A stretch of 56,837 nucleotides of DNA, counting the filler, from Bipalium vagum (lineage: Eukaryota), in assembly GCA_037834085.1 (NCBI GenBank). It is 3 parts of 3 records of this genome, joined end to end, with 100 filler letters (N's around TTAATTAATTAA, not from the genome) between each part and the next. Parts side by side here need not be neighbours in the genome. Positions count along the whole stretch, not along the records: positions 18,241 to 40,121 come from JBBMKC010230190.1; 2 more parts are not named here. One strand, 5' to 3'. Below the pieces are notes generated by a model that saw only the letters and a program-made list of their open reading frames with translations, had not been told where the DNA came from and ran no database searches. The position numbers and the translations under genes are program-made. Shown one piece after another: positions 6,985 through 49,920 of this stretch (the stretch's first letter is position 1; each line of letters starts with the position of its first letter).

Positions 6985-7693
6985 TTAGAATTTATTTATA
7001 TTTCTTATTACCTCTTGAATATTAAATCCCGTAATGGACTGAATAACTCCGGGTAATCTTTCCATAATATCCAGTATCTCTTTTGTTAATTTGGAAGCCC
7101 CAATTTCTCCTGACCCCGTGCATATCATAGATATTTTATCACAATTTGCTATGGGCGCAGCTACCTCCGCTGCCAGCTGGGGCAACATATCCAGAAACAT
7201 GTTTAACCTAGCAGCTTCCTGAAATATAATTTTTGTTAAATTTCTAAGAGTGATTTTATTTGAAAGCTTTTCAAAAAAACTTTTTAATTCACTTTAAAAG
7301 TTGGACTTTAAAAAAATCTCTAATGGTTTTTAAGTTCATGTTCACTTAATTGTACAAATGAATTTGAGAATAGTTCCTGTCTCAAATTCCTGAATTTATT
7401 AAATCCCAGTTTTCTACCTTTCAAGACATTTTCGAATATAAATAAAAAGAATTGGTGCTTTATTATAAGTGTATTCAAACAGTGTTAATAATTTGGGTGA
7501 AACCAATTAACAGAATTATATTCATACATTTTTTAAAAATCTTTACAGATTTTTTATATTATTAATATATATAATTTAGTTCATAATTTTAATAATAAAT
7601 AAAGTCAGCATCAAATTGGAAACATTTAAATAAAATTTAACATTCAGAATTTGATTTTAAAAAATTTAAAAATTACAAAAACATTTATTATTA

Positions 7694-7735
<42 letters not shown>

Positions 7736-10700
7736 TACTGGCTATTGCAGTTTTTGTTTAAATTAATCCACCATTTAATTGTTTTAATCGTCGTTACTAT
7801 TGCTTCCCATAACTGTTCCCATTGATTTCAAATTTTCATGATATACGACACCTTCCATATCCCACCAAATACAAAGTATTACTTATAATAATTATTTACG
7901 AAGAACCCTGATGTCTGTCCTGGGCTGCCAAAATTAAATTATTATAATATCAAATTAATTATATATTATCAATTATAAATTATAATTATCTTTAAATATA
8001 TTATATATTTCGAACTGGGCGCTATCAGACTAGCCAAAATCACCATTTGAAAATTTTCGAAACCAATGTTGGCACTTATTGACTTTTAATACGCCTCCAT
8101 ACACATCACAAATCTTCTTTGTTGCAACGGTTGCATTAACACCTGATCGAAAATGAAACAGTATGCAATGACGTAAATGTTCCTCACTTGGTTGATTCTC
8201 AGAATAATATATCTCATAATATATATAAACCAAACACTCCATAATAAAAATAATTGATTTCTTATGAGTACTCCTAATATATATTTCATAGAAAAATCAA
8301 AGGAGTAATGTATTAAGGAATGATATATTAATGAGCATAAAAAAGCTGTCTTAGGAAACCAATAAAAACAGTAATTATTGAAGCTGGAAGTTTCTCGGTA
8401 ATGTACTGAATAAAAACGGTATACAAACAGATCTGTCAAAAATAGAAACAATCCGGATATTTACTCAACCAAAATATGTTAAAAACTTAAGAATTTTTTT
8501 TGGAAATATGTAAATATCAATCTTGTTTCATGATTGTTCTTAAATTTATTTAAAGGATTTTAAAAGTTAATTTAGTTTTCTGAGTAATTTATAACAAAAT
8601 AACAAATTAAAAGAATAAATTTAGTAAATTAATAATGTACAACATATTTATATATAATTAAAATATAAAGGTATTTTTAAAAATTGATATACAGGGTGCG
8701 TCAGCTATTTGAGGACAAAAACTGTTAAAATATATCAGGATAATTATTTTAGTGGCACTAAAATTGATTTGCAATATTTACTGATACATTAAATAATTAT
8801 TTTTTAATTTAGAAATGGAAGAGATAACTTTTGAATTAACACAAGAAATGAAAAGGCATACGGTTATTGTTGCATTAGCCGACAGATCGTTTGTCAATAA
8901 AATTAGAAAAAAATGTTTGACATCTGATCAAAATCTTTCCTCTATATCTAAAAGAAAAACACATTCCTCATGTTCAGACATTGTCAGAAATGTTAATTTT
9001 GTTTACAAAAGGATGTTATTCATGAAAGTCCCGGAACATCAGTGAGAGAAATTGCCAATCGACTATCGGTTTCTGAGTCAACAGTAAGACGAACGGTAAA
9101 CAATGATTTAAAATGCAAGTCCTACATCATGAGAAGAAGACATTTTGTATCCGCAAAAAGCAAAGAAAAACGTTTAATCCAGTCGAAGTTTATTTTAAAC
9201 AAACAAGCATCCTGATCATCCAAACATGCTATGGTTCTTTTCTGATGAAAAACTTTTTACTCAAGATCAAAAGGTTTATAGGAGGAACAACCGATAGCTG
9301 TACTCCAGTGCTTCTGAAGTTCCTAATGTTATTCACACAAAGTTTCCACCATCTTTAGTGATATTGGGTGTTGTGAGCAGCTAAGGTCATGCTATGCCTC
9401 CGTATTTCTTTCCACAGGAATTTAGAATTAATGCATCTTTTTATATCGAGTGTCTGGATACATATGTGAAGCCCTGGATTGAAATAGTTGCCCACGGAAG
9501 TCCTTATGTGTTCAACAAGACCCAGCTCCCTGCCATACAGCATTAAAAACACAAAAATGGCTATCTAAAAAAATTTTAACGACCATGTAACTCCAAACTT
9601 ATGGCCACCTATCTCACCCGATTTAAATCATTTGGACTATTTCGTATGGGGAGTCGTAGAGAAGGAGACGAACAAACATCCTCATAATACCAAAGATTCA
9701 TTACGGGCTTCTATAAGTTCTGCTACAATAAATATGAATAAAAACCATTTGATTGTGTCTTGTAAGCTTTTCAGAAGCCGTCTTGAAGCTGTAATTGACA
9801 CTGAAAGCGATTTTACTGAATAAATAAAACTTGTGTACTTAAAACAAATAAAGTTTCTAATATTGCTTAAAAATATACATTCTTTTCATTAAAAATAGTA
9901 CTTACCTTTAATATCAATTTTTGTCCTCAAATAGCTGACGAATCCTGCATTTATATCCCACTGTTTGATTAAATTTGTTTAAATATTTTGAATTTGTTGA
10001 TCACTTAATAAATTACTTTAAACGACTTACTGTTATGGATTCCAAATCGATAGATGTTAATAGGATATATTTTTCGTCGCATTGCAAAAGACAATGGTAT
10101 CAAAAGGTACTGTACGAAGACATATATGGACATATGAACACTAAAAATGGTTATTGGAACAATGTAAAATGTTATATGGTTTAATGAGTTTTAATTTGAG
10201 ATTTTCGGACAAAAAAGGAAAACATGTACCCAGATAATAAAAGAAAAAATGATGGATCAGTAAAGCATGGATGTGGAATTAGTAATGATATTGGGTTATT
10301 TTGGAAACAATAAAGTTGGAAACTTGGTCTAAATCAATGGAATTCTAATATATATAGATATTTTAGTTCACTAAGCGGTTCCAAATTGATTGGGTTTAAT
10401 TGATCAAAATTTTATTTTTCAACAAGATGATAATTTGAAGCACCCATCAAAATTAAAAGGTTTTGAAAGGTTAAGAAGCAAATAGGTGGGATAGAAGTGA
10501 ATTGATTCAATTCCATAAAAATCGATTTAGTCTTTACTTACAAGGGTTTTGTTTTGATTCCTTTACTGGTTAATAATAAAATAATATTTTTATAATCATT
10601 CAAAATTTTAAAATAAATTAAATATAAAATCGTCTATAAAAATTAAACCTATTTTTTTATGTGAAATTTTTATTTCCCGAAGTTTTCAAAAATAATCATA

Positions 10701-12523
10701 ACTACATTATTATAACATTATAAAGTATCACACGATGGACTCTTTTTAAACAAATGAAAAAGCTAAGGTTTCTCACCTCATATTCTTTCCAAGCTTCAGC
10801 CTTCAGTCTCATCTGCATAGCATCGGCTTCGGCTTTTAGTGAAATCGTTTTGGCTTCGGCTTCTCCTTTCAGTCTAATTTTTTCTGCCTCAGCCTCGGCC
10901 TCTCGAAATATTCGGTTCATTTCTGCTTCACCCAACTTTTCCAGGCGATATTTTTCAGCGTCAGCCGTTTTCCGGATAGACGCTTCTAAATGTTTATCTT
11001 GTCGTAAAATTTCTAATCGTTCGACTTCTATTTTTCTTATTTTTTCAATGACCTTTATTTGCATGTCTTCTTCTTTAATAGACTGTTTCGTTTTTGCTGC
11101 CTAAAATGGTTATATATATAATTATTATTTGTTATATACATACTTGAATGTCATAAGCAAAATCAGATTCCGCCCTTCTTGTTTGAACTTCTCTTTCAAA
11201 GTTAGCTTTTTTAAGTTCATAGTCTCTTGAAGATTTTGCAATTTCCACATCATTACTACACTGGGCTGCTCTTTTTAACTGTTCAGCAATTGCTTCTTTA
11301 ATCCCAGACTCCTTTTTGGCCTCCGCTTCTCCTATTCTAGCATCTCTCTTAACCTGTGCAGTTCTAGCTTCGCCTAGTGCTTTTAAATATCCCTAATGTA
11401 AGGAAAACATTACTTATTATTGTATTATGTGAAACAAATCATTAAATAATAAATAATCATTAAATAATAAATTATCATTAAAATAATAAATAATCATTAA
11501 AATAATAAATAATCATTAAATAATAAATAATCATTAAAATAATAAATAATCATTAAAATAATAAATAATCATTAAAATAATAAATAATCATTAAAATAAT
11601 AAATAATTATTAAAATTATTAAATACACCTCATCATCCTGTATATCTTTTAATGTATAACTGACAACACTGATTCCCATATTAACCATATCGGATGAAGC
11701 TACTTCGAAAACGGAACTGGAAAACTTTTTACGATCTTTGTAGATCTCCTCCACAGTCATGTTACCCATAATAGCTCTTTGGTGAGCTTCTAGCGTTTCT
11801 TTGGCAATGTCTCGTATTTCGTCTTCTGTTTTCCCTAAAAACTGTTCACAGGCCGTTGCCAACATGATTTTATCCGACCCATTTATTTTTATCTGAAATC
11901 CAATTATTACACCATAAAGTTCTTTGTTATACAAGAATTTTTAAACGTTCAATGACTTCACGAACTTTCCGAACAGGATGTTTACGTATCCAGTCATGAT
12001 GATATTACATTACAATATGACCACAGTTTTCCAAGTAACTTACTAACCTGTGCCACTCCAGTCACAGTAACAGGAACACCTAACTGCGTATAGATTCTTG
12101 GACTTGTTATTATTAATGTCATCGTATTTAGAGATATTCTAAAATGAATAAATTTAATAAAATTGACTTTCCATCAATTATATTTTATAAAATGTTGTTT
12201 ATGTTATAATAAAGGTATTGGTAATGATGGCGATGAAAGTTATTTTGATAAAGATCATTCACACTACTATTTGTAGGGGTTCTTTATCGTACATATATAA
12301 TACAGGTTAGAAAATAAGTTAAATAAGAGTCATTAATAAAAAAAAATTATACTTCTGCAATTTGTGTATTAGGGGCCAAACAAATTTACGACCACCAGAT
12401 ATCATTACAGGTTTCCTGAAAAAACACCCTTTTCGCCATTTTATTATTCAAAACTCAATTATGAACCCTACCTGAAATGACCATGGCTTCATTAGGTCCA
12501 CAAACGATAAATCCCCAAGTCAT
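6985..12523 (-). CDS. FLOT1: Flotillin-1 (SPFH/band 7 family); exons 12523-12472, 12428-12353, 12138-12048, 11892-11629, 11392-11144, 11100-10777, 7218-6985
   Basis: Spliced product [19 protein letters not shown]...ISLNTMTL...[14 protein letters not shown]...ACEQFLGK...[25 protein letters not shown]...[18 protein letters not shown]...EA-rich coiled coil...[13 protein letters not shown]; all introns GT-AG with consistent phase. Confidence 0.95.
7770..8476 (-). mobile_element. mariner remnant in flotillin intron 6
   Basis: [30 protein letters not shown]...[13 protein letters not shown] and a separate [13 protein letters not shown] fragment; TIR-like end near 8450-8476. Confidence 0.75.
8692..9947 (+). 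mobile_element. Tc1/mariner DD37D (maT-type) transposon, near full length, pseudogenised
   Basis: TIRs CAGGGTGCGTCAGCTATTTTGAGGACAAAAA / TTTTTGTCCTCAAATAGCTGACGAATCCTG; WFFSDEK...QQD..PCH...[16 protein letters not shown] with about 37 residues between the second and third D after frameshift repair. Confidence 0.85.
10050..10470 (+). mobile_element. Tc1-like transposase fragment
   Basis: SVKHGCG and [14 protein letters not shown] motifs (cf. TVKHGGG, FQQDNDPKHTS). Confidence 0.6.
11436..11615. repeat. Minisatellite, 18-19 bp unit AAATAATCATTAAA(A)TAAT, about 9-10 copies, filling flotillin intron 4
   Basis: Directly visible tandem array. Confidence 0.9.
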
Positions 12524-19648: not shown

Positions 19649-19825
19649 TACAATCAATATATAAAATTAGGTTAATCATTTTTATTCTAAGCTTAAATAT
19701 TTTCAGTATAATGTATTCAATTTAAGTAATTTTTTTATTTATATTTATATTTTTTGAAATTGTAATCATTTTATAATCAATATTTTTATATTTCTTATTA
19801 ATGTAATTTTTTAAAATAATTTAAG

Positions 19826-22800
19826 CTGCTGCAAGTAAAAAGATACTGACTGAAGTTGCAAGAATTGGACATGATTTCGCATTTGGGTCTGAAAAGTCTG
19901 ATTTATTTGAAAGAATTGTTAACCAGCTACCTGTCGTTTTCACTTTACAGGATGAATACGGTGACACGTATGTGNNNNNNNNNNNNNNNNNNNNNNNNNN
20001 NNNNNNNNNNNNNNNNNNNNNNNNNNNNNNNNNNNNNNNNNNNNNNNNNNNNNNNNNNNNNNNNNNNNNNNNNNNNNNNNNNNNNNNNNNNNNNNNNNNN
20101 NNNNNNNNNNNNNNNNATCAAGTTAGATTTTTCTTAAAAGCTGTTATAATTTCCTCTTACGTTTATTTTTTTAGTTCTTATGCTTATTTTATAATGAAAA
20201 ATTTAATGCAAGTTGGTAAATTTACATTTTATTTTATTTAAATTTAATTTTTATATTTTTTATTATTGATTTATTTTTTTTAATTTAATTTTTTTAATTT
20301 GGCAAAATTTCAAAAAACCGATTCTATAGTTTATTTAAATTTCTATATGGTTTTTAGATTTTACCAAATACTTATTTTCTTAAGATAGGTACGTGATTAA
20401 CTTTTTTAGACCCCTTAACAATGCAATACTCAAGGGAAACGTGGCACAGGCTTATGAAATTTTGCGCATTGTCAAAGAACATTGTTCGTGGGCGCTGGAT
20501 CTGATGAACACAAGTGGTCACACTGCACTGATTTTGGCTCCAGCGTGCAAGGTTCCAGCTGAATTTGTGAAGTCTCTATTACTGGTCGGTTGTCGTCTGG
20601 ATATGTGGGATGACACAGGAAAATCTTCCATTATCCATGCGATAGAGTACCAGAATATAGAAGCTTTGTATGTTTTACTGGAATACGGTATGCAATAGGT
20701 CGATTAAGCATTATTCTGATATTTGTTCTGGCAGTGCAACAAACAAAGATGACCTATCTTCTGTCAAGATTCTGCACCAGTTACTATACACCACTGCAGA
20801 TCGCAATCATGAGCTCATTTAAAGCGGGAATAGAAATGCTTTTGGAATTGAGAGATTATAATGGGCATTATTTAGTAAATGTCAACGAGATTGGATTGGG
20901 AAGTGAGGAGACGGCGTTGCATACTGCTGTTAGCCATAGTTGCGACGTTGAAATACTAAAAATGCTCCTAAAAAGATCGGATAGTGAGAATAAATTTTAC
21001 ATTTAATTTTCTTTCAAAATTTTATAAATTAGTTAATTTTTTATTTTTCAAATTAACATTGGCCTAGTTAAAAATATTTTATTGGTTCGGATACGTTTAT
21101 CTGAAAAAAATTATTTGGAAAGTTGCTAAATATGTTTTTACGGAATTTTTCGTTTCAAAAATTCTTCAAAATCAAATGAAACTGAGAATGTCTTATATTA
21201 AGAATCAAAAAGAAATTTGTTTTAATATATAAAAATATTATATTAATTATGTATCATATTTGAATAATTTTCAAGAAGTTTAATAAAGATCTGTATTATT
21301 TAAAAAAAATAAAGGGCTTTTTGAAATATTTCATATATTTATAAAAAAGACTTCGTCAAAAGTTCAATGACCGATTTCTTGATGGTTTATGATTCATTTA
21401 TCAATAGATCTTTTACAACATTGAGTATAATTTTATTTTTTAAAAATAGCAATCATTGAGGCTATTTCTGAAACAAAATCTGACATATATTATCGCTATC
21501 TTATCAGCAAAGGTTGACAACAAAATTTTGGTACCAGAAATTTTCAGCAATTGTATTTTGATTTTCATCAAAATTTTAATTTGCTGAAATATATTATAAC
21601 TCCATAAAAAGTGGTATAAGGTTATAAAATCTGGGGGCCAATTAACATCAATTCGCTGACAGGTTACGCGACCATTAAATGTTCTTTGTAATAGCCATAT
21701 GGTTTCCTTGACCTTCCACTTATATCACAGACAACCAATGTCCGATTCCGTGTCGTCATTGACATCTGAGAAGCTGAACCGTTTTGTGTACTATTTTGGC
21801 CAAGTTTCTAGAACGGGTTGCGTTATGGAAAGTAATATTTACTACTGGTCTGTGTTATATCCCATAGCAATAAGCAATCAGAAGGTAAGTTTATATAGGT
21901 TCAGAAATCCTATTGGTTTAAATAAGTAATTGTAGATGGCGCAATAAACCAATAGGTAAAAATTACATTTCATGCATGGACTGTTTTTATTCGATATGCG
22001 AAAATCATTAAAGGAAGTGCATTAAGTGTTTGTGGAAACACCTGAAATTATTGTACTATTCGGATACAGCTCCAACATATTTTCATTTATTCACTTCAAC
22101 GACACATACTCTAGATGATTTTCAAAATTTAGTATCTAATTGGATTCATTCAAATGGAAAATCATTTTATTGTCGCAGAATATCCATGTTGTCAGATTGA
22201 TGTGAGAAAGTCATTTTTGAAGATGGTAAATAATATCTATTTTTCATAAAAAATATATTATAAGTGGTTTAAAAGGTTTAAAATTAATTCACCTTTCTAA
22301 TATAATCAATTTTTATTTCTGATTAATTTCGGAAAGACTTTTGTAATGAACGACAAATAAAGAGTCGATCGTTTATTTTATAATAATTATACTCACTTTG
22401 GAAATTATTAAAAGATCATTATTTTAGTTCTTGTTAACAAATTAAACATGTGCAAAGAAACGGCTTTAGATATCGCTATAAAAATGAAGTCAACGCCAAT
22501 AATTGATGTGCTGAAAAGCTTCGAAGCGATTGCCCAAAGTAGTAATCATATCGAAGCGGATAATGTTTAGATTTTAGATCTTTAGCTGTCTTATTTTATC
22601 ATTTGTTTTCTATAGATAGAAGAATCAAGTGATGACGAAGATCTGGATGAAATCATGATGAATTCTTCTGAACCTATTCTTAGTCCTGAAATGGACCGTG
22701 AGTATGATTCTGTTCCATCGGTAAATGCAATAACTTGCTCAATGGAGGACTTGAGCTTGAAGGGTGAAATAAAAGTAAAAATGATTGACATTTTAATAAA

Positions 22801-23032
22801 CTCGATTGGACCGTCACTGACAATTAGTGAGTTGAGGGAGATTGTGAAACCGAATTTTCGATCGATTTTCAATAAATATGGAAATACATATGAACATAAC
22901 AAGAAAGATGTGAGTCAGTTGCTAGATCGATTTAATTGTTTACCGGATTCGGTCGGTGTTCTCCTACAAACGTTAGAAAATATCGGACGTCAAGATTTGA
23001 AACATAAAATTCTAACGAATTTCATACATTAA
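19826..23032 (+). CDS. Ankyrin-repeat protein with acidic tract and C-terminal death-domain-like region (IkB / NF-kB p105-p100 C-terminal-like), 5' partial; exons 19826-19967, 20410-20687, 20735-20983, 22428-22564, 22616-23032
   Basis: Spliced frame gives LQDEYGDTPLNNAI, GHTALILA, GKSSIIHAI, YYTPLQIAI, EETALHTAV, KETALDIA (about 6 ankyrin repeats), then EESSDDEDLDE and SVGVLLQTLENIGRQD; GT-AG junctions in phase. The first exon seen begins in phase 1 without an ATG. Confidence 0.8.
21590..21860 (-). mobile_element. Tc1/mariner DD41D (rosa-like) fragment in ankyrin-gene intron
   Basis: ETIWLLQRTFNGRVTCQRIDVNWPP...HFLWSY resembles the F.GR.IS..GDVNWPPRS..L...DFFLWGY signature. Confidence 0.6.
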
Positions 23033-23872: not shown

Positions 23873-24230
23873 TGTTCAATATTTAGGGTATCAAATTTAT
23901 ACCTGACTCCAAAAATCTTAGCTGGTGCAAATCAAAACAATCAGTAAAGCAACACTTGTATTTATACCACACCAAAATAAAATACAATACACTGAGATTC
24001 AAAGAGATAATGCACAAGCTTGGGATCACAATAAAATGTCTGAAATGTTCCACAAATCTTACACTATCTGATCACAACACAGAAATAATTAAAGTATTGT
24101 TCAATCGAATATAATGTTTTTAAATCAAATACAATAATGATCAAAAGTTACTCAATACATGTAAATCAAAATGTTAAAGAAAAGAACTCTGCAGTTGACA
24201 ATAATTGTAAGCACGTTTTCTGAGGGTTGA
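23873..24230 (-). repeat. Probable 3' LTR of the adjacent retroelement
   Basis: Lies immediately downstream of the env-like ORF, ends in ...TGAACA on the minus strand, and has a diverged same-orientation copy at 35563-35850. Confidence 0.6.
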
Positions 24231-24234
24231 AAAT

Positions 24235-25122
24235 CTACTGAAATCCCTTTGCTTTTGTCACTATGCATTCCTTTACTTGAGTTCTCCGGAATTCCGTTTC
24301 TTGATAGATGTGATATTCGACATCAGTCTGCTTCATTTTGGTGGGATATGCTTCTGGGCATTCCTCTAGACCCATTAGCGAATATATTTTTCTGATTTTC
24401 GGTTTACTAAAATCGTAGGCCACTAAGGCATTTCCTCTGTCCAACATATTCATAAACATGAACATGATTAATATCATCATTGGTAGCCACATATTTGATG
24501 GCTTTTCTCGCTCTGATCTCTGTTGCTCCCTTCTACGGCTATATGGAGCTCCTCTAAGTTGCTCGTAATCTGAATCGTCTTCATTTCTTGTCTCTCTTGT
24601 ATATTCACGTCTACGATTCCTTGGATCTGTTTCTCTTGATTTCTGCTGTCGCTCTGATTGCTCTTGCTTTGTGAGTAATAATCCTTTCCATCCTTGATGT
24701 AATTTGAGCCATGGACTAAAGAAATCATTTATCTTCTTGTTAGCTTTCCTTACTAACAAATCTAGACTCTGTTCTCCACCCTCTTTATTTATCTTTAATA
24801 ACCTTTGTAATAACATCGTAATACCAACTAAAACTTTTTCTTTATCTACTGCTTCTTCTACTAAGTATCCTAGAACCAAATCATCACTAATATTACTCGA
24901 TTCATCCACAAAATCTTCAATATCGATAACGACCTTTTGCATTTCTTCAAAAATGTCCCGAGTTAATTTATCTGGTGGTTCTCCATCCTCATTTAGCGGA
25001 TCCATCAAGTTGATTAATTGTTTAATAATGTTTTGGTCATCCATTGTTTCCATATCATAATTTTCTTCCTCATGCTGCTTTCGATATTTCTCCGCCAGTT
25101 TTATAAGAAAGTGTCTTCTCAA
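24235..25122 (-). pseudogene. Retroelement ORF ending in an internal signal peptide and the truncated N-terminus of a chuvirus/gB-like envelope glycoprotein
   Basis: 295-aa ORF; hydrophobic MWLPMMILIMFMFMNM..GNA then LVAYDFSKP...YSLMGLEECP...YHIYQ...QVKECIV, matching the L.AYDC...SL..V..C...I...Q...V..C.V pattern of jingchuviral-type glycoproteins. Confidence 0.65.
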
Positions 25123-25129
25123 ACTATCT

Positions 25130-25907
25130 CTAGTTTCTGCTCTGATACCGGGAGTAGCAGTCTATCCCTCCTTGGTCGACCAACCGGATTACTTTCGGGT
25201 CTAGTCTCCCTTACTTTTGCTTGACAAGTGTTACATATGGTCTTATCTCTACTACTTCATCCTGCATCATTCCGTAACGTCATTTGATATTCCCGCTTTA
25301 TCTTCTTCACTTTCTGCCAATATCACGTCATCAGAATCCTCTACTAGTTGTCTTTGATCTTGTCTAGCAGCGATGAGTCCATCCTGCAATGTTGTCTGTA
25401 CATATTGCAGTACTTCAGTTTTTCTTTGGTCTATTCCAATTGACCCTTGTACTACTTCGGGCTGCTCTGATTGTGCTAACTTTGCTTTTTGTTGTTCTAA
25501 TACATTAGACGGGTTAGTCATAACTTCTCGGTTTAGCAGACGAACTGGGCGGCCTCTTTCATTCACTTGTGTTGCTATTATAATAGTGGTTTCATCTGCG
25601 TTACAACCACACTCCATTAAATATTCATTATCATCGAGTTGTTGGCCTAACCAAAGAATTACTATTACCCACTGATTTCCCATAATCTCTTCTGCCATTT
25701 TTCTCAATTTTTTACCTGAGTACAGTAATGCAACTTAAGATCAATTTCCTTACAATTCAGCATCCTAAATTTAACTTTCAATGGCCTCATTTCAATTTCT
25801 GTCCTTCTAACATATCTACCGTATCTTTTTATCAATAGCCTTATTTCTGCTTGATGTGGACCAAACTCCACTAAATACGGTTTTACTTCCTTTATTACTT
25901 TTTCCAT
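25130..25907 (-). pseudogene. Frameshifted retroelement accessory ORF(s) of unknown function
   Basis: Abutting ORFs 25907-25704 and 25707-25267 with the same purine-rich composition as gag and env; no recognisable PR/RT/RH/IN motif. Confidence 0.45.
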
Positions 25908-25972
25908 TTAACGGAGGTGAGATTGATATCTCCAAAATTTGACTAAACAGCTTTGAGATCCTTTCCTGATCT

Positions 25973-27000
25973 CTAGGTATCTGTTTCCTGTTTTATTGAA
26001 AGTAGCAATGGTACAGATACCGGTTTTAGTCTATTTACTTCTCTATCCGACTCATCTCCTGAAAATGCATTTATTTTTGCCTTATTACTGAAGGCTAACC
26101 TTTTGACAGGCTTGATTTCTTCAGTATGAACGCATGATCTCACCATGTGTTCATACTGGCCACACATAAAACATTGAATTTTCCCGACAATGTAGATTAC
26201 CTCTTTGCGGTGGTTTCCTTGACCAACAATCAGTCTCCAAATGATCTCGTTTATGGCTACTCTTGCATACCTTGACTCGGCAATCTTTAGCCTTATGCCC
26301 ACGAATCTGACAATTACTTCATGTAATATCTAAGCTACTACCTCTACTAAAATCTCTTTTCAAATCTGGACATTTTGATGCCATGTCACCTTTTTTATTA
26401 CATTTAAAACACCTTCTGTCTGAACCTCCATACTGTTCCTCATTACCTCTTCTAGACCTTTCTGGTCTTTTAATCAATTCATACACCGTGTTCCTTTTTA
26501 ATCCTCTCATATTCATTCCCATTTTCTTTGGTTTCTGGATTAATTCATCATAATCCTTATATTCGAATAAACTGAGTGCTACCCGCAACTCCTGACTCAT
26601 TCCGATTTAAAACTGATCCTCAAACAACTTCCTTATCTGCTCTCTTATCACCAAATGCACGCTCTGCCAGTATTCCTAACTAGTAGGCAAATTCACCAAT
26701 CATTTCATCTCTTCTCTGCTTTCTCTGCTGAAACATCTGTCTGTTCAGCCTTTCCAGTTTCCCTGGAATCAATCGACTAGTCAAATCTGCTAGTAACTGT
26801 GCCCATGTCATATTCGGCTTCAACTCTACATCTTTGTATGCACTGCTTGCCATACCTTTTAGATAAATGGGCAATCTCTGAATCATTCTGGCATCATTGT
26901 AATCGAAGGCTTCAGCCATTCGTTTGTACTATGCCATAAAAACAGCGAACTCCGTTGGTTCTCATTAAAATCCTTTATGGGCAATTTTTAATAGGATTCC
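25973..27000 (-). pseudogene. gag: Ty3/gypsy-like Gag pseudogene with four CCHC zinc knuckles
   Basis: AEAFDYND...LPIYLKGMASSAY...TWAQLLADL...RKQRRDEMIGEFAY*L (retrotransposon capsid pattern), followed by knuckles CFKCNKKGDMASKC, *SNCQIRGHKAKDC, CKSSHKRDHLETDC, CFMCGQYEHMVRSC. Confidence 0.85.
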
Positions 27001-27344
27001 CTCTCAAAAGACTCTATCTTAATCTCCTCAACAATTCTCTGTTTATTCCTTGTAAGTACCGTTTGAACCGGGTACTTATCCAAAATCACAACAGGCTAAC
27101 TAGCCTTTAATTAAAACAAATAGCTTTAAAAGCCTTAAAAATCCAGCCACGCGAGCTTCACAATTTCAGGTACAGCTCCCTGAGCTTTTATAAAATACAG
27201 CCTCACAGGCTCGCAAATTCTCTCTCTAGCCCACGTATATCACGTCGAGCCGTTCAACAATTATATGTTGGCGCAAACCTACCCCTTAGCGTACCTGACC
27301 TTACTAAGGTTGCTATGGGCCTAACTATAGAGCTCGCAATTTGA

Positions 27345-27677: not shown

Positions 27678-29593
27678 TCAGATTTTCATGTTGTTTTTTA
27701 TTTTATTTGTATATGGTTCAAATGTAAAATTTTCTATTAACCATAATAAATCTTTAGAATAAGATTTTAAATCTTTTTCTTCTAAGTTATAATTTTCAGC
27801 TCTTAAAAATATTTCATAATATTTTTTTTGTGGAAATCTATTTTCAATTTTATTTAATTCTTCATTAGACAAATTATTAAAATCGTTTCTTTTGGTTTCC
27901 ATTTTTTAAGAAAAAATTACCCGGTTTTTAAAATTTATTTTAAATTTTTCATTTGGATATTTTTCTAATACATCTTTTAAATATAAATGAAAATCATACT
28001 TTGATCCGTTATAAAAATATAATGGTATGAAGAAGTCTTTTAATGATCTATCATTTATATTACATGAAGAATGTGCTGCTTTTCTATATTTCTCATTTAG
28101 ATGCTCATGGTCGGCAACTTTATTGTCTTTACTTTGTAAATACAATTTTTTTGTATCTTTTAGTATTTTATTACAATATACACAAGTGGTTGAAATAATA
28201 AAATTAATTTCATCTTCTTCATTCATAATTATTGATTTATTTGAATATTTTATAATATCTGTTAAGAATTTATTAATATCAACTAAAAATGTTATATAAT
28301 CGTTTTTTGTATTTACCCTAAAAAATTCATAATATTTTGATTACAACTAATTCTGGATAATTACTTTTTAAATAAATTCCTAATGATAAAGTTATTTGAT
28401 TGATTTCACCATTTATTGTTTTATTAAATGTTTCAAAATCACCATATAAAACAAATGGGATTTTATTTCTAAAATAGTAGTTTTTATATCCATGATAATC
28501 ATCAGAAGGAAATATAGCTTTAGCTTCTTTAAATTCTTGACATAAATTTGTGTTTTTTCAATAAATTTTCTGAATAATATGAATTTAAACATTTTAAATA
28601 TAAATAATTATTTTTGGATTTGATGTTGGCAAATTTAATCATATTTCTTCATAAAACCCAATGATTTTTATATAGTATTAAATTGCATTTTCTATCTTCT
28701 ATTGAATGTTCAGAATTGATGGGTAGTATATTTTGATTATCATCTACTTCAAAAAAATTGACTAATATTATTTTGTTTATTAAATTTTATATCATGAATT
28801 TTCATTGGAAAATTAATATCTCGGATATTTAATTCATTTATAAAGGGAATATAATTATTTAATCTTTCTGAATGATCTTCTGCTGGATGAAGATAAGCTA
28901 TAATGGAATATAAAGACATTAATCATCATTATTTTTAATATTTACAATATATGAAGATTTAAATGGTAATTTTATATAAGAAGAGCCCACTAATGATTGA
29001 TATTTAAAAAAATCTAATTTTAATAAATTTATAAATTTAAATTTCCATCCAGATCCTTGTAATTCTTTTTCCTCGATAAAGGTTTTTAATTGCTTCAAAT
29101 TAGATATTATCACATTTTGAATTTCATTTCTATCTATTATTCTAGTTGGTTGAGAATAGAATTTATATGTTATTTCTTCATTATTAATTGAATTAAAATA
29201 ATCACATTCGATTATTATTTGATATCAAAATTTTTGTTTTTGTTTTTCAAAATATTTATTAATTATATCCATTAGTTCTTCCTCAAAATGAAATATTAGT
29301 TTCATTAATTTTTAAAAATAATTCTAATTTATTTTTCAAAATTTTTTATTTACTATAACCATATTTTTTATACACAGTTTTAAATTTAGAATTTAGATTG
29401 TTTAACATGATTTCATTTACTACTTTTTCTTTTGGTAATTCATTAAAAAAATATTATTATTAAATGAATTATCTCTATGAAGTTTAGATTTATTATGAGA
29501 AATTAAAGCTGTTTTAGTTTTGAAATTTTTACAATATTTTTATTCACAATATAATTCCTTCACTTTGGATTTGCTTTGTTCGGTTTTGTTCAT
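27678..29593 (-). pseudogene. Protein-primed family B DNA polymerase (Polinton/adintovirus type), N-terminal half, decayed
   Basis: N-terminal zinc finger, GSGWKF...GSSYIKLP...IVNIKNNDD, Exo I PFVLYGDFET, endonuclease VII-like insert C..C...VADHEHLNEKYRKAAHSSCN, Exo II FYNGSKYDFHL; many stops and frameshifts; polymerase palm motifs not seen. Confidence 0.85.
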
Positions 29594-30094
29594 TTTTTAT
29601 TTAATTTTTTATATATATTTTACTTTTCAATATATATTAATTCAATAAATGAGTACTGATAATATGATAAGTAGTGGAAAAACAAAGATGAAACTCAAGA
29701 CTTAAGATTTTAAATAAAATTCGTTTTTAATGTTCTTAAAGTCTTTGAGTCACATACATGTTATGAGTAGTATGGAAATAAATAAAATAAATCGAAATCA
29801 AAGCTGTAATTTTTTATTTATATCTGATATCCAATATCTTTAAAACTATTAAGTTTCCGAATAAACCTCTATTTTTTAATTTTTAGTAGAAAACGATCCA
29901 ACGAAGTTGGAGTTGCGAACCAATGGTTTAAAAAACGATTTAGTTTACTTTATTTCTAAATTGAGTTGTGGTTAAATACAATTGAATGTTGCCCACTTAT
30001 TTCCATATAAGTGAATGGATTTTCAGCATTTTTTCCATGGATTTTAATATGGTGGACCCCCTATGAGCGGTGAATGAGTTGAAAATGATACAAA

Positions 30095-31578: not shown

Positions 31579-34500
31579 ATGCCTGCATTTATAAATTTTT
31601 TTTTGCCATGTTTAGTCATAGTAATTATACTTGTGCATAATACTTCAGCACTTTCTTACTTTTTTGAAGTAATTAATCATTTTAAATTAAATGAGTAAGT
31701 ATTATTAAATAATTTACTTTAAATTCTTTTGTATTACACTTTAATTTATTTTATAATTAGTTTCTAAATTCAATATGAATTTATGTAATTTTTTATAAAA
31801 TTGTTTGTTATTTTTAGTTCATAGAGTAAAATTTGCGGTAATTAGATTGATAAATATTTAATTAGTGGTTAATATATAGAAGTATTCTTTCAATATTTAA
31901 TAATAACTTATTTTATAGGTTACCAAACATATTTTCCAATCTTTGGCTACATAGTTTATCAGCAACTATACTAGTGAGTGCAGCTCCTTTACTAGTAATA
32001 TTTCTTATTCCAGATCTTAAAAATCATCAAACACTATTAAATATTCTTCTTGCCTTTGCCGCTGGGGGTTTATTGGGTGATGCATTTCTACATTTGATAC
32101 CTCATGCAATTGATCCTCATGACCATGATGATTTTCATTCTCATCATCACGGTCATAAGGAAAACGATCACGATCATGTTCACGGACATGGGCACAGCCA
32201 CAATAATCACTCGAAAAACCTGGTCGTTGGACTGTGGGTTGTTGCTGGAATCATGTCTTTTCTATGTGTGGAAAAGTTTGTCAGATTGGTCAAAGGTGAA
32301 CATGGACACAGTCATCATCAAAATGAATCTATGAACAATAACAAAAGGATATCACATGGTGAATCTAAAAATCCAGAAACTGAAGTCAGGCTGAGAAAAG
32401 CGAAAGAAAAGTTCACTAAGTCAAAAGAGTCCAAGCAACATGACTTAAGAGATCAGAATCAAAACATAAAAATTTCTGGATATTTAAATCTTGTAGCAGA
32501 TTTTGCTCACAACTTCACAGACGGCTTAGCCATAGGTTAGTTAGGATTAGTTAAGTTGATTGACAGAACATTTTGTAAAGTTGTTATATTTAATCAATTC
32601 AGATTAGTTATTGATTCTTTTTTTCATATATGAAATATATTTGAAAAAATCACTAAACGATTATCAATATATTATCGATTATTATAAAAGAGATTGATCT
32701 GAATTTTCACAAAAATGTGTTCTTGGAAAATCGAAAAAAAAATCTTACCAATATATTTTTCATTAACTATTCAAAACTATTTACTTATATTTAACAATAT
32801 TGTCTTTATTTTCAATTTTTTTTCAGGAGCGTCGTTTCTGGTGAACAAAAACGTAGGAATTGTGACCACGATTACAATTCTATTTCACGAAGTACCACAT
32901 GAAATTGGTGACTACGCAATTCTAATTCAATCGGGCTGTTCCAGAAAGAAGGTGACGTTTTTAAATTGCTAATTATTATGCGGGATTATATTGATTTTAT
33001 GATCACAAGGTGGTTATGTGCTCTAACTATTTTCTCATTTAACAAGACGCGAATCTAATGAGCATATGTTTTTAATCATTATTAATTAACTAATTATTAT
33101 TATTAATAAAAAGAAAATTAAGTTTTCGTGAGATCACTATTAATTTACATTAGTAAGAGATTCAGCTTTAGTTTAATTCGTTTGTTGACGAGAGATAATT
33201 CTTATTTTTGTCATTCAGTTCTTCAAAAGCTCAATCAATTTTTTTCCGTTTTATTTTTAATTGCGCTTAACTATAACTACAAAATCCTAACTTTCTGTTT
33301 CAATTTCCAACTTTATTTCGTTGGTGCAGGAATTTTTAGTCTTATGTTAAGGAAATTGGTTAGAGTTTAATTATTTTTATATAATTCCCTCTGGAGAAGT
33401 TAATCGTTATTCTTAAAGTTTAAGATTTTATTATCTAATAATGTCAAGTATTCGCTTACATAATTTTTTATTCCCATCGAGTTTCCTAATTAACTAATCG
33501 ATTTAATTTTCAATTGGTTATATAATTGATTGCACTGACAATTGGTTTAATTCCTTCAGACTTGAACTGATAAAAAATATCTTTTTAGTATAATTAGTGG
33601 TAATAATAATTATTGCTAAGTATATAAACATCTTTACTATGGCGTATGCAAACAATGATGACGCTAGAGTAAATTATTTCAAATAAAAGTATTAAACTCA
33701 AGACTTAAAAATAAACTATTAGAATTAAAATATTATTTCTAAAATTCTACACATCGGGTCTGTAGGGGTTAAGTGTTGCAAATTATGTTACACTTATTTT
33801 AATACCAATATATAGTAAAATTAAAATTCTGTTTTTTGAGTTTCTTAGTGGGAAAGGTTAATCGATGAATTATATCAACATTTATGAAATTTATTTTTAT
33901 TATTATTACTAAATTTATAAAAGGATTTTTTAATGAAATTTTCTTTATATTTTTGGTTTTTAAGGTGATCGATTGGTTATGGTTAAACTTTTCATATTGA
34001 AAGAATTTATGGCTGTTACATTTCGATATTTAAGTTGAATATGGGAGTTAGAAATAGGATGTTAATTTCCAAATAAAAAGATTATTAATCTAAACACGTT
34101 TTATCATCTTATGTAATTCGGTAAGTAATGTGTCATTTTTAATAAGCAAAAATTCTATACTTTCCAAATGACCTAACACAATAAATCGTCAAGACAAAAT
34201 AAAAATATTATTAAATAGAAAATTTGTTCAATATACATTTTTTAATTTCGATCTAAAAGTTAATTTATCCAGGTCTTTTTTCACTAAATTCTGTCATCAA
34301 AATAGGATATTTTCCCATTTGATATTAAATAAGTTTTTTGAGGATTCATAAACAATTATGAAATAAAATTGAATTATTTTTGTCTTTTTATCGATCTTTA
34401 CTATAGGCAATTTTATTGCAATTGATTACGGCTCTGGGAGCTATGCTGGGAACAATCCTCAGTTTATTCGCAAAGGACATTGGAACAAGTTCCACCTGGA

Positions 34501-34658
34501 TTTTACCCTTTACAGCTGGTGGATTTATTTATATTTCTACTGTTTCTGTTTTACCTGAATTGTTGAAAAGTCATTCTCAAATTCGTCAATCGGTTTGTGA
34601 GATCATTGCAATGATCACTGGGGTCGCAATGATGGTTCTGATTGCTCTTTTTGAGTAA
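31579..34658 (+). CDS. SLC39A7: Zinc transporter ZIP7 / Catsup (SLC39A7, LIV-1 subfamily); exons 31579-31694, 31919-32535, 32827-32951, 34407-34658
   Basis: Signal peptide, SAAP..., [21 protein letters not shown], His-rich loop, [67 protein letters not shown]; GT-AG introns in phase. Confidence 0.95.
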
Positions 34659-35562: not shown

Positions 35563-35850
35563 TGTTCACTATTTAGTGTATCAAATTTAGACCTGACTCC
35601 AACTTAGGTGGTGCAAATAATAACAATCAGTAAAGCAACAATTTGTATTTATATCACACAATCATAAAATATACAGAATGGTAATCGAAAGTCTGGGATC
35701 ACAATTCTAATGTCTTAAATGCTTCACAAACCTTCCACTACTTTTCAAAGCACAATACAACCCAATAACAATAATTATAAATAATGAATATAATGTCTCA
35801 ACAATAATGTCCAATAAAATCAATTATTATACAATCAAAGTTCAAATAAA
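35563..35850 (-). repeat. Diverged second copy (solo LTR-like) of the 23873-24230 repeat
   Basis: Shared TGTTCA.TATTTAG.GTATCAAATTTA.ACCTGACTCCAA, TGGTGCAAAT, ACAATCAGTAAAGCAACA, TTGTATTTATA, TGGGATCACAAT, GAATATAATGT blocks in the same order. Confidence 0.7.
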
Positions 35851-36816
35851 ACAAAAAAAACAATATTAATAATTACTTTAACAAAAAAAAAATAAAGATA
35901 AAAGAAAATTGAAAGTTCTTACGGTTTATCTTCCGCTAAAACTAATGAGTTATCGCCTGAGCCCTAACGGTTGTTCACTGATTCTAAGAAGATGTTAAAA
36001 ATATATTATTTAGAAGGAGAAGCCCTAAACGAAATGAAGAAATTTGATCAGAAAAATTATGATTTATTTAAAGAAGAATCATATTAATTTTTCCTCATCA
36101 TATGTTTATTTTCTAATCAAATTTTTTAAATTGGAGAAAACTCACCCGAAAATATTGGATTATGGCCTATCAGTCTATTTTGTGAAGAAGAATTTCACAA
36201 TTATCAAAGAAATTTGCAAAAAAAAAATTGGTAAATAATTTAGATAAACACTTTGAATAACAATTCTATTTATAGTAACTTTTGTGGAATGCCATTCCAC
36301 TTTTTACTCTTATTCTAATTTTTTTAATGAAATAAAATTTTTGATTTTAAAAATATATAATAAAAAATTTAAGATAGTTAATTAGAAAAAATTAAAAAAT
36401 TTTTATTAAAAAATGTCTACAAAAATCAATGAAGAGAAGTTACAAAAAAATTGAAATAGGGAAACCAAAATATATAACATTTAATGGAGAACAACAATAT
36501 TTAGGTTAAAAAATAATGAACGAAGTTAAAGAAAAAATTGAAGATCAAAATGATGAACAAATATCGTACAAATTACGTACCTTTCCAACACATTCACATT
36601 TTTTCTATAATTCAGAAAAAATATTCAACAATTTTTCCATCAACTAGTAAGTATGAATTTAAATTTAATTCAAAAGATATAAAAATTTATGAAATCCTAA
36701 TTTTTAAAAGAAATATATTTAAAAGTGAAATGGAAGAGATTGAAAAAAAAGGCTCTCAATTCTTTACAATGTAAAATACTAAAAAAATCTTTATTTTTCA
36801 AAATTTATATTAAAAA

Positions 36817-41609: not shown

Positions 41610-49920
<8,311 letters not shown>

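Follow-up and report, generated by a model that had tools for sequence, protein, structure and literature searches.

Structure of the locus

The window analysed here is a stretch of 56,837 nucleotides, filler included, from Bipalium vagum (GenBank assembly GCA_037834085.1). Between positions 23873 and 27340 its minus strand carries a 3.5-kb remnant of a mobile element in which a gag region is followed, in order of reading, by a ubiquitin-like domain, a domain with a predicted Bcl-2 fold, the beginning of an envelope gene (env) and, after these, a repeat. The domain order and the coding breaks of this copy were observed directly. With a probability that we put at about 85%, the remnant represents a decayed, likely internally deleted and dead copy of a Burro-like Ty3/gypsy long terminal repeat (LTR) retrotransposon with the order GAG-ENV-POL. 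The window as a whole is AT-rich (GC mostly 0.2-0.3) and contains intron-containing animal genes, flotillin, a ZIP transporter, mariner-like fragments and assembly gaps.

The envelope stub and the predicted Bcl-2-fold domain

An open reading frame (ORF) of 308 amino acids, measured from stop to stop (24235-25161, minus strand), encodes three consecutive parts: (i) the Bcl-2-fold domain (24667-25056), (ii) an internal hydrophobic, signal-peptide-like segment (24427-24492, hydropathy maximum 2.15), and (iii) a truncated chuvirus-type (Monjiviricetes, gB-type) env ectodomain, of which the first 60 or so amino acids are present (24250-24426).

Residues 229-302 of the ORF match the Pfam family PF24664 (Monjiviricetes_fusion) at E 2.7e-4 (19.5 bits, below the 27-bit cut-off). 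A phmmer search of 1.84 billion proteins with the last 90 amino acids yielded 38 matches at E≤0.001; 22 of these were domain-scanned, among them P0021, a spurious repeat protein, and PF24664 was present in 21, in 20 cases above the cut-off (P-numbers denote env-family proteins, while L001 and L002 are nucleotide loci with related elements). Against the family, the 60-residue stub reaches 68.3 bits and the best of 40 shuffles 11.6 bits. A similar hydrophobic segment precedes the env start in 13 of the 13 relatives shown. The window has a phenylalanine in place of a near-invariant cysteine (at least 90% of 14 rows), which is retained in all 13 relatives shown, and the homology ends at about position 24250 in nearly all env alignments. 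The closest env match is 53% identical, and the close matches are all unnamed metagenome proteins. A word-based homologue search with the stub gave one candidate and no relative. When P0015 was compared with PDB sequences, the best 60 of 85 rows were all Bcl-2 proteins, with no env-fold row among them; the attribution of a class III (gB) trimeric fold to this type of env is taken from PMC13524379.

A previous, sequence-only reading of the locus had proposed that the ORF ends in a signal-peptide-like stretch followed by a chuvirus/gB-type env, of which about 64 ectodomain residues survive and in which the first cysteine reads phenylalanine. PF24664, the phmmer relatives and the shuffle control bear out the type of env, the stretch is predicted by hydropathy, the alignment of relatives confirms the lost cysteine, and the surviving ectodomain of about 60 residues comes close to the earlier figure. 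The search with the last 90 residues, which that reading had suggested, recovered the chuvirus-type glycoprotein family.

The domain directly upstream of env, and in frame with it, is uninterrupted. Its AlphaFold2 model (24667-25056) consists of seven helices, with a predicted local distance difference test score (pLDDT) of 82. In the VIA comparison, rows 1-34 are all Bcl-2-fold structures (best Z 13.1, root-mean-square deviation (rmsd) 3.1, 131 residues aligned), the first unrelated structure appearing at Z 6.5. The same domain was found just upstream of env in 8 of 40 env-family proteins; with a profile built from those eight, the best 60 of 132 PDB rows are all Bcl-2 family proteins or viral homologues (best E 5e-5), and Pfam Bcl-2 (PF00452) is matched by eight of nine family members at E≤5 (best 2.5e-5). 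Locus L001, an independent ninth member kept outside profile building, was recovered at E 2e-25 with the Bcl-2 profile and at E 4e-30 with the ubiquitin-like profile. Word-based searching with the Bcl-2 profile added no homologue, since the three proteins that it returned were already known family members.

The window domain has kept a BH2-like W..HQGW motif (W-x4-GW); in the nine rows possessing such a motif it lies 56-97 residues from the env start. At the column of the BH1 motif NWGR the window reads DKEK, and this column is non-canonical in all eight aligned rows that reach BH1. The BH1 glycine is required for BH3 binding. Viral Bcl-2 proteins (those of Kaposi's sarcoma-associated herpesvirus (KSHV Bcl-2) and African swine fever virus (A179L), and vaccinia N1, A52 and B14) resemble the predicted fold at Z 6.7-11.9, but the window domain differs from them in belonging to a retroelement polyprotein and immediately preceding an env signal peptide.

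The ubiquitin-like and gag regions

Further upstream on the minus strand lies a ubiquitin/SUMO-like domain (25561-25790), frameshifted near 25710, which can be aligned to L001 (E 2e-12) and P0004 (E 8e-11). PDB entries matched by the ubiquitin-like profile include ubiquitin, SUMO and ISG15 (best E 2e-5); for P0004, the modelled structure corresponds to the ubiquitin fold (Z 10.1, rmsd 1.3, 73 residues aligned). Ahead of it, the alignment places a small conserved domain (25788-25992), spread over two frames, which is helical in the model of the relative P0004. Comparison of this domain with PDB sequences gave nothing convincing (best E 0.0046), and a suggested resemblance to the TFIIS N-terminal domain found no support in that search.

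Only about 140 nucleotides separate this block from the last zinc knuckle of the nucleocapsid region (26132-26411), where translation and weak Pfam matches indicate up to four CCHC-like knuckles, some of them degenerate; two reach Pfam zf-CCHC, both below the cut-off (E 0.0026 and 0.02). Stops and a frameshift interrupt the gypsy-type gag capsid region (26487-26997). From 26997 to 26487 it aligns with amino acids 62-230 of ORF1 of L001 (30% identity, E 3e-12, tblastn), and it is also alignable to the gag of P0011 and P0020; the match to the gag of L002, itself a weak Ty3_capsid match (E 0.027), is weak (E 0.005), and Pfam gave no direct gag-family match for the region. The interval 27000-27340 presumably corresponds to a leader or a degraded gag N-terminus, given a shift in composition and the AT-rich foreign sequence upstream. 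An Rfam scan of bases 1-27500 gave no match. Ten sequencing runs contained 8-29% of the sampled words, with no RNA run listed, and carry no evidential weight.

The minus-strand gypsy-style gag of the sequence-only reading is upheld by its alignment with gag from L001, P0011 and P0020. In its account of the interval from gag to env both ends have proved real, but the two intervening cargo domains, ubiquitin-like and Bcl-2-fold, were overlooked.

Related elements

The gypsy assignment of the window copy rests on its gag and on its relatives, because pol is absent from the window. Among the 22 scanned proteins, env is followed by a protease (PR) in seven and by reverse transcriptase (RT), RNase H (RH) and integrase (IN) in three, and in none does RT lie upstream of env. 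P0040 and L002 likewise continue from env into PR, RT, RH and IN; the 2,693-amino-acid ORF of L002 holds gag, env, PR, RT, RH and IN in one frame. Env was seen between gag and pol in L002, P0004 and P0020, and the PR-RT-RH-IN of the env relatives P0016, P0024, P0029, P0040 and L002 is of the Ty3/gypsy type. For the RT-RH of P0016 the nearest PDB sequence is Ty3 (E 4e-89), among listed rows that included no BEL/Pao element for comparison. BEL/Pao marker families are absent from the Pfam matches of the relatives (rather than of the window) at E≤0.01. The proposal that the element is gypsy-type is therefore borne out by gag and by the Ty3/gypsy pol of the relatives, in which gag and env, as that proposal had supposed, are linked.

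Since the relatives are Gag-Env-PR-RT-RH-IN polyproteins, pol would have lain downstream of env, and its absence between gag and env reflects the normal order of a GAG-ENV-POL family. Comparison with these sequences suggests that the pol of the window copy was most likely deleted. The copy lacks everything past env residue ~60, equivalent to about 2,090 amino acids in L002.

L001 shows the domain order of the window (gag, knuckle, helical, ubiquitin-like, Bcl-2, env). P0011 has gag, ubiquitin-like domain, Bcl-2 and env co-linear in one ORF, and in P0012 Bcl-2, env and protease are joined in one ORF. The cargo is modular: (i) ubiquitin-like and Bcl-2 domains occur together in the window, P0011, P0032 and L001, (ii) the ubiquitin-like domain alone in P0004, P0024 and P0037, and (iii) neither in the gag-containing P0020 and L002. 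In a quick env tree of 24 rows, from which most short matches were left out, the window joins P0002 (86) inside a 14-row group holding most of the cargo-bearing rows. Pattern searches of metagenome contigs provided two loci from at least 593 matches, and those of viral contigs (72 matches) and genome contigs (13) provided no confirmed relative.

Some further features of the relatives were recorded. P0004, P0012, P0016 and P0040 contain several tandem aspartic-protease domains, some of them after the integrase (up to seven stretches in P0040), as well as long C-terminal extensions that include hydrophobic segments. In L001 (61-4266) the ORF with the Bcl-2 domain and the one with env are set apart by a single stop codon, which might have arisen by mutation or error or serve as a readthrough site. 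P0024, a ubiquitin-like-env-pol polyprotein, is filed under a Flavobacteriaceae metagenome-assembled genome and is almost certainly misbinned animal DNA.

Several observations weigh against a Burro-like GAG-ENV-POL origin of the remnant or against parts of it. Pol (PR-RT-RH-IN) was not found in the window copy by Pfam or by self- and relative alignments, and no sequence obtained has a Bcl-2 domain and RT in the same ORF. As for the fold, a Z of 13 is close to the caution line of VIA for helical folds, the Foldseek rows shown are all Bcl-2 family, yet every one has E≥4e-3, and the best Atlas score of the domain is 0.77; unlike eight of the nine family members, the domain of the window has no Pfam Bcl-2 match. 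The window row of the env tree lacks starred support and has 14% of its columns filled. Finally, the MATH, BIR, Smc, dUTPase and ankyrin domains of Burro1 were not seen in the window copy, and self-blastn of the window detected no 5′ copy of the terminal repeat upstream of gag.

The LTR-like repeat

The remnant is followed by a T-rich, LTR-like repeat (23873-24150, minus strand) with the terminal sequence TGAACA, which may or may not be its 3′ LTR. A second, diverged copy, possibly a solo-LTR fragment, lies at 35563-35870 on the same strand (77% identity over 211 columns); in self-blastn 23873-24081 and 35563-35754 are 77% identical (E 1e-35) and 11.7 kb apart. Both copies stop at the same TGAACA, and their upstream boundary fades gradually. 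A 23-nucleotide core of the repeat has two matches in the window and none in 100 shuffles. A primer binding site and a target-site duplication were not identified at the element. The LTR-like repeat of the sequence-only reading is thus real and has a second copy, but in view of the missing 5′ copy 'LTR' is no more than a plausible label for it.

It is conceivable, if less probable than not, that the coding part is Burro-like and the 3′ repeat stems from another mobile element, either inserted into env or brought alongside by rearrangement, in which case the remnant would have neither LTR of its own here. Besides the missing 5′ partner, the modest similarity of the two copies, their gradual upstream boundary and the approximately 100 nucleotides of unassigned sequence that separate the repeat from the break in env speak for such an origin; against it, the repeat is on the same strand as the ORFs, has a sharp common 3′ end in CA, and sits where an internal deletion would place it.

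Comparison with published elements

Two publications describe elements of this kind. Chary and Hayashi (eLife; PMC13524379) report 1,512 env-bearing gypsy elements, in which the F and gB types of env are equally widespread. According to the text, the gB type occurs in Ty3/gypsy elements across metazoa, chuvirus-like BEL/Pao env baits having retrieved 114 gypsy elements, and the order GAG-ENV-POL is present in Nematoda, Bryozoa and Platyhelminthes; a table includes six HSV-type elements of Schmidtea mediterranea. These HSV/gB-type GAG-ENV-POL errantiviruses are like the element studied here in their Ty3/gypsy pol (as judged from its relatives), their chuvirus-like env and the position of env before pol. 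The main text of PMC13524379 concerns intact copies, unlike that of the window, and contains no mention of Bcl, ubiquitin, ankyrin or Burro. An absence of clear gypsy captures in arthropods, stated in the relevant passage of PMC10084718, has been superseded by this later work.

The second publication (Arkhipova and Yushenova; PMC6431247), citing Jurka 2007 and Grohme 2018, treats planarian Burro/GYPSM1 as giant gypsy-like LTR retrotransposons of Dugesiidae, about 30 kb in size, with an ORF of about 4,900-5,100 amino acids and MATH, BIR, ankyrin and dUTPase cargo. Their order is given as gag with two or three knuckles, a Ubi2/SUMO-like domain, a BCL2-like domain, in-frame env and PR; the env is said to match mononegavirus glycoproteins, ankyrin and BIR cargo is also carried, and ORF1 of D. 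tigrina is described as lacking MATH. The authors suggest, as an untested idea, that the elements act on apoptosis and ubiquitination. The window shares with Burro, by the published description rather than by sequence, a CCHC gag, a Ubi/SUMO-like domain upstream of BCL2, and BCL2 directly upstream of an in-frame env. Pfam found no MATH between the knuckles and the ubiquitin-like domain of the window copy. Ankyrin repeats are present in the relative P0040 (4,844 amino acids), whose predicted protein is without Bcl-2. That the capture of a Bcl-2 domain might itself be unreported is ruled out by the BCL2-like domain described in Burro (PMC6431247).

The sequence-only reading had gone further and suggested an undescribed gypsy lineage with an independent capture of a class III fusogen. 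The 53% identity of the closest env match, with close matches that are all unnamed metagenome proteins, would fit this suggestion, as would the host flotillin, which is at most about 64% identical to the 120 matches listed, so that host and lineage may be unsampled. The proposal is nevertheless improbable, since gypsy elements with chuvirus-type env and the GAG-ENV-POL order (PMC13524379) as well as the Ubi-BCL2-env cassette (PMC6431247) are all in print, and HSV-type elements of Schmidtea mediterranea have been tabulated. In the literature searched, PMC6431247 was the only match for Burro-like elements, and none was reported outside Dugesiidae. Planarian genomes are more than 70% A/T (a passage in one of PMC8532177, PMC11410931 and PMC13238120), with which the AT-richness of the window is compatible, though not specific.

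Even more improbable is a domestication of the 308-residue ORF, with its Bcl-2 fold and membrane anchor, as a regulator of apoptosis or immunity of the host. It is the sole long open frame left, while gag and the ubiquitin-like domain are broken, and in-frame Met codons lie upstream of the fold; on the other hand, about 920 nucleotides could plausibly stay open by chance in a moderately old copy, the env cysteine is lost, and there is no orthologue or expression support.

Anakin, reportedly described by Dezordi in 2020, is said to be a mosquito BEL/Pao element with a chuvirus glycoprotein of the same env family; its backbone is BEL/Pao, in contrast to the gypsy-type backbone of the element studied here, and we know of no Bcl-2 or ubiquitin-like cassette in it. 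That the remnant is such a BEL/Pao element, or a chuviral glycoprotein endogenous viral element (EVE) lying by chance beside an unrelated gypsy gag, is the least probable explanation and appears largely refuted by the domains and co-linearity of the relatives: chuvirus-type EVEs do often adjoin fragmentary LTR elements without capture (PMC10084718), but gag, ubiquitin-like domain, Bcl-2 and env are co-linear in P0011 (in one ORF) and L001, the pol domains of the relatives are Ty3/gypsy, with no BEL/Pao marker family, and the env stub and the Bcl-2 domain share a single ORF.

Neighbouring genes

About 850 bp from the element ends an intron-containing host gene (19825-23032, plus strand) with ankyrin repeats and a weak death-domain match, for which we would suggest the label IkB/p105-like. 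Between its ankyrin exons and the intron-less ankyrin domain of P0040 the identity is 36-42% (E 3e-27), and the similarity runs continuously across the first intron of the gene. The gene may therefore represent a candidate donor family for Burro-type ankyrin cargo, acquired via spliced mRNA; its closeness to the element is probably due to chance.

The expected position of the 5′ LTR is occupied by very AT-rich, degraded ORFs (27678-29600, minus strand). These have no Pfam match, and we take their motifs to resemble a protein-primed DNA polymerase B of the Polinton/adintovirus type. The remaining genes comprise the host flotillin-1 (6985-12514, minus strand), which is on a long branch and 52-64% identical to the 120 listed matches, none labelled flatworm, and a ZIP7-like zinc transporter (31866-34658, plus strand; Pfam E 3e-35). 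Exons at 41970-47506 (plus strand) are presumably calcineurin-like. Several Tc1/mariner fragments lie between the host genes.

Proposed function and significance

In the Burro-like GAG-ENV-POL origin that we favour, the active ancestor would have produced one long polyprotein, cut by the protease of the element and by host signal peptidase. Its Gag would have packaged the RNA, and the internal signal peptide would have directed env to the endoplasmic reticulum, where env may have adopted a trimeric gB-type fold and acted as a fusogen in spread between cells. The hydrophobic segment left behind could have served as a C-terminal membrane (tail) anchor of the Bcl-2-fold domain. Together with the ubiquitin-like domain, the latter would likely have dampened host cell-death or innate-immune signalling. 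Because the NWGR of BH1 is lost, a non-canonical interaction, like those of poxviral Bcl-2-like proteins, would be more likely than classical BH3 binding, although we rate the chance of any such role at somewhat below even. In the window copy, the whole of pol and the greater part of env would have been lost in a deletion, which would measure some 6 kb or more when L002 is taken as reference, and later mutations would have inactivated gag.

The copy is unable to produce an envelope or to move on its own, and as a dead fragment of a described kind this single locus matters little on its own. It does, however, connect Burro with the gB-type GAG-ENV-POL errantiviruses, a link that was not found in the literature searched. 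The model of the domain suggests that the 'BCL2-like' motif of Burro-type elements is a complete Bcl-2 fold, and a small, uninterrupted Bcl-2 domain offers a direct way of testing the interference with apoptosis and ubiquitination that PMC6431247 proposes. The known range of Burro-like elements would widen if the host proved to be other than a dugesiid. A bolder proposal, which we consider possible but rather unlikely, is that Burro-like elements are spread more widely among invertebrates, as one clade of enveloped retroelements that can exchange cargo taken from their hosts, the window copy residing in a non-dugesiid host. Should this be true, the cargo would comprise a Bcl-2 fold lacking the BH3-binding motif, with the env signal peptide as its tail anchor, together with a ubiquitin-like domain and an ankyrin domain of IkB-like type derived from spliced host mRNA, and would amount to an immune-evasion kit like those of large DNA viruses.

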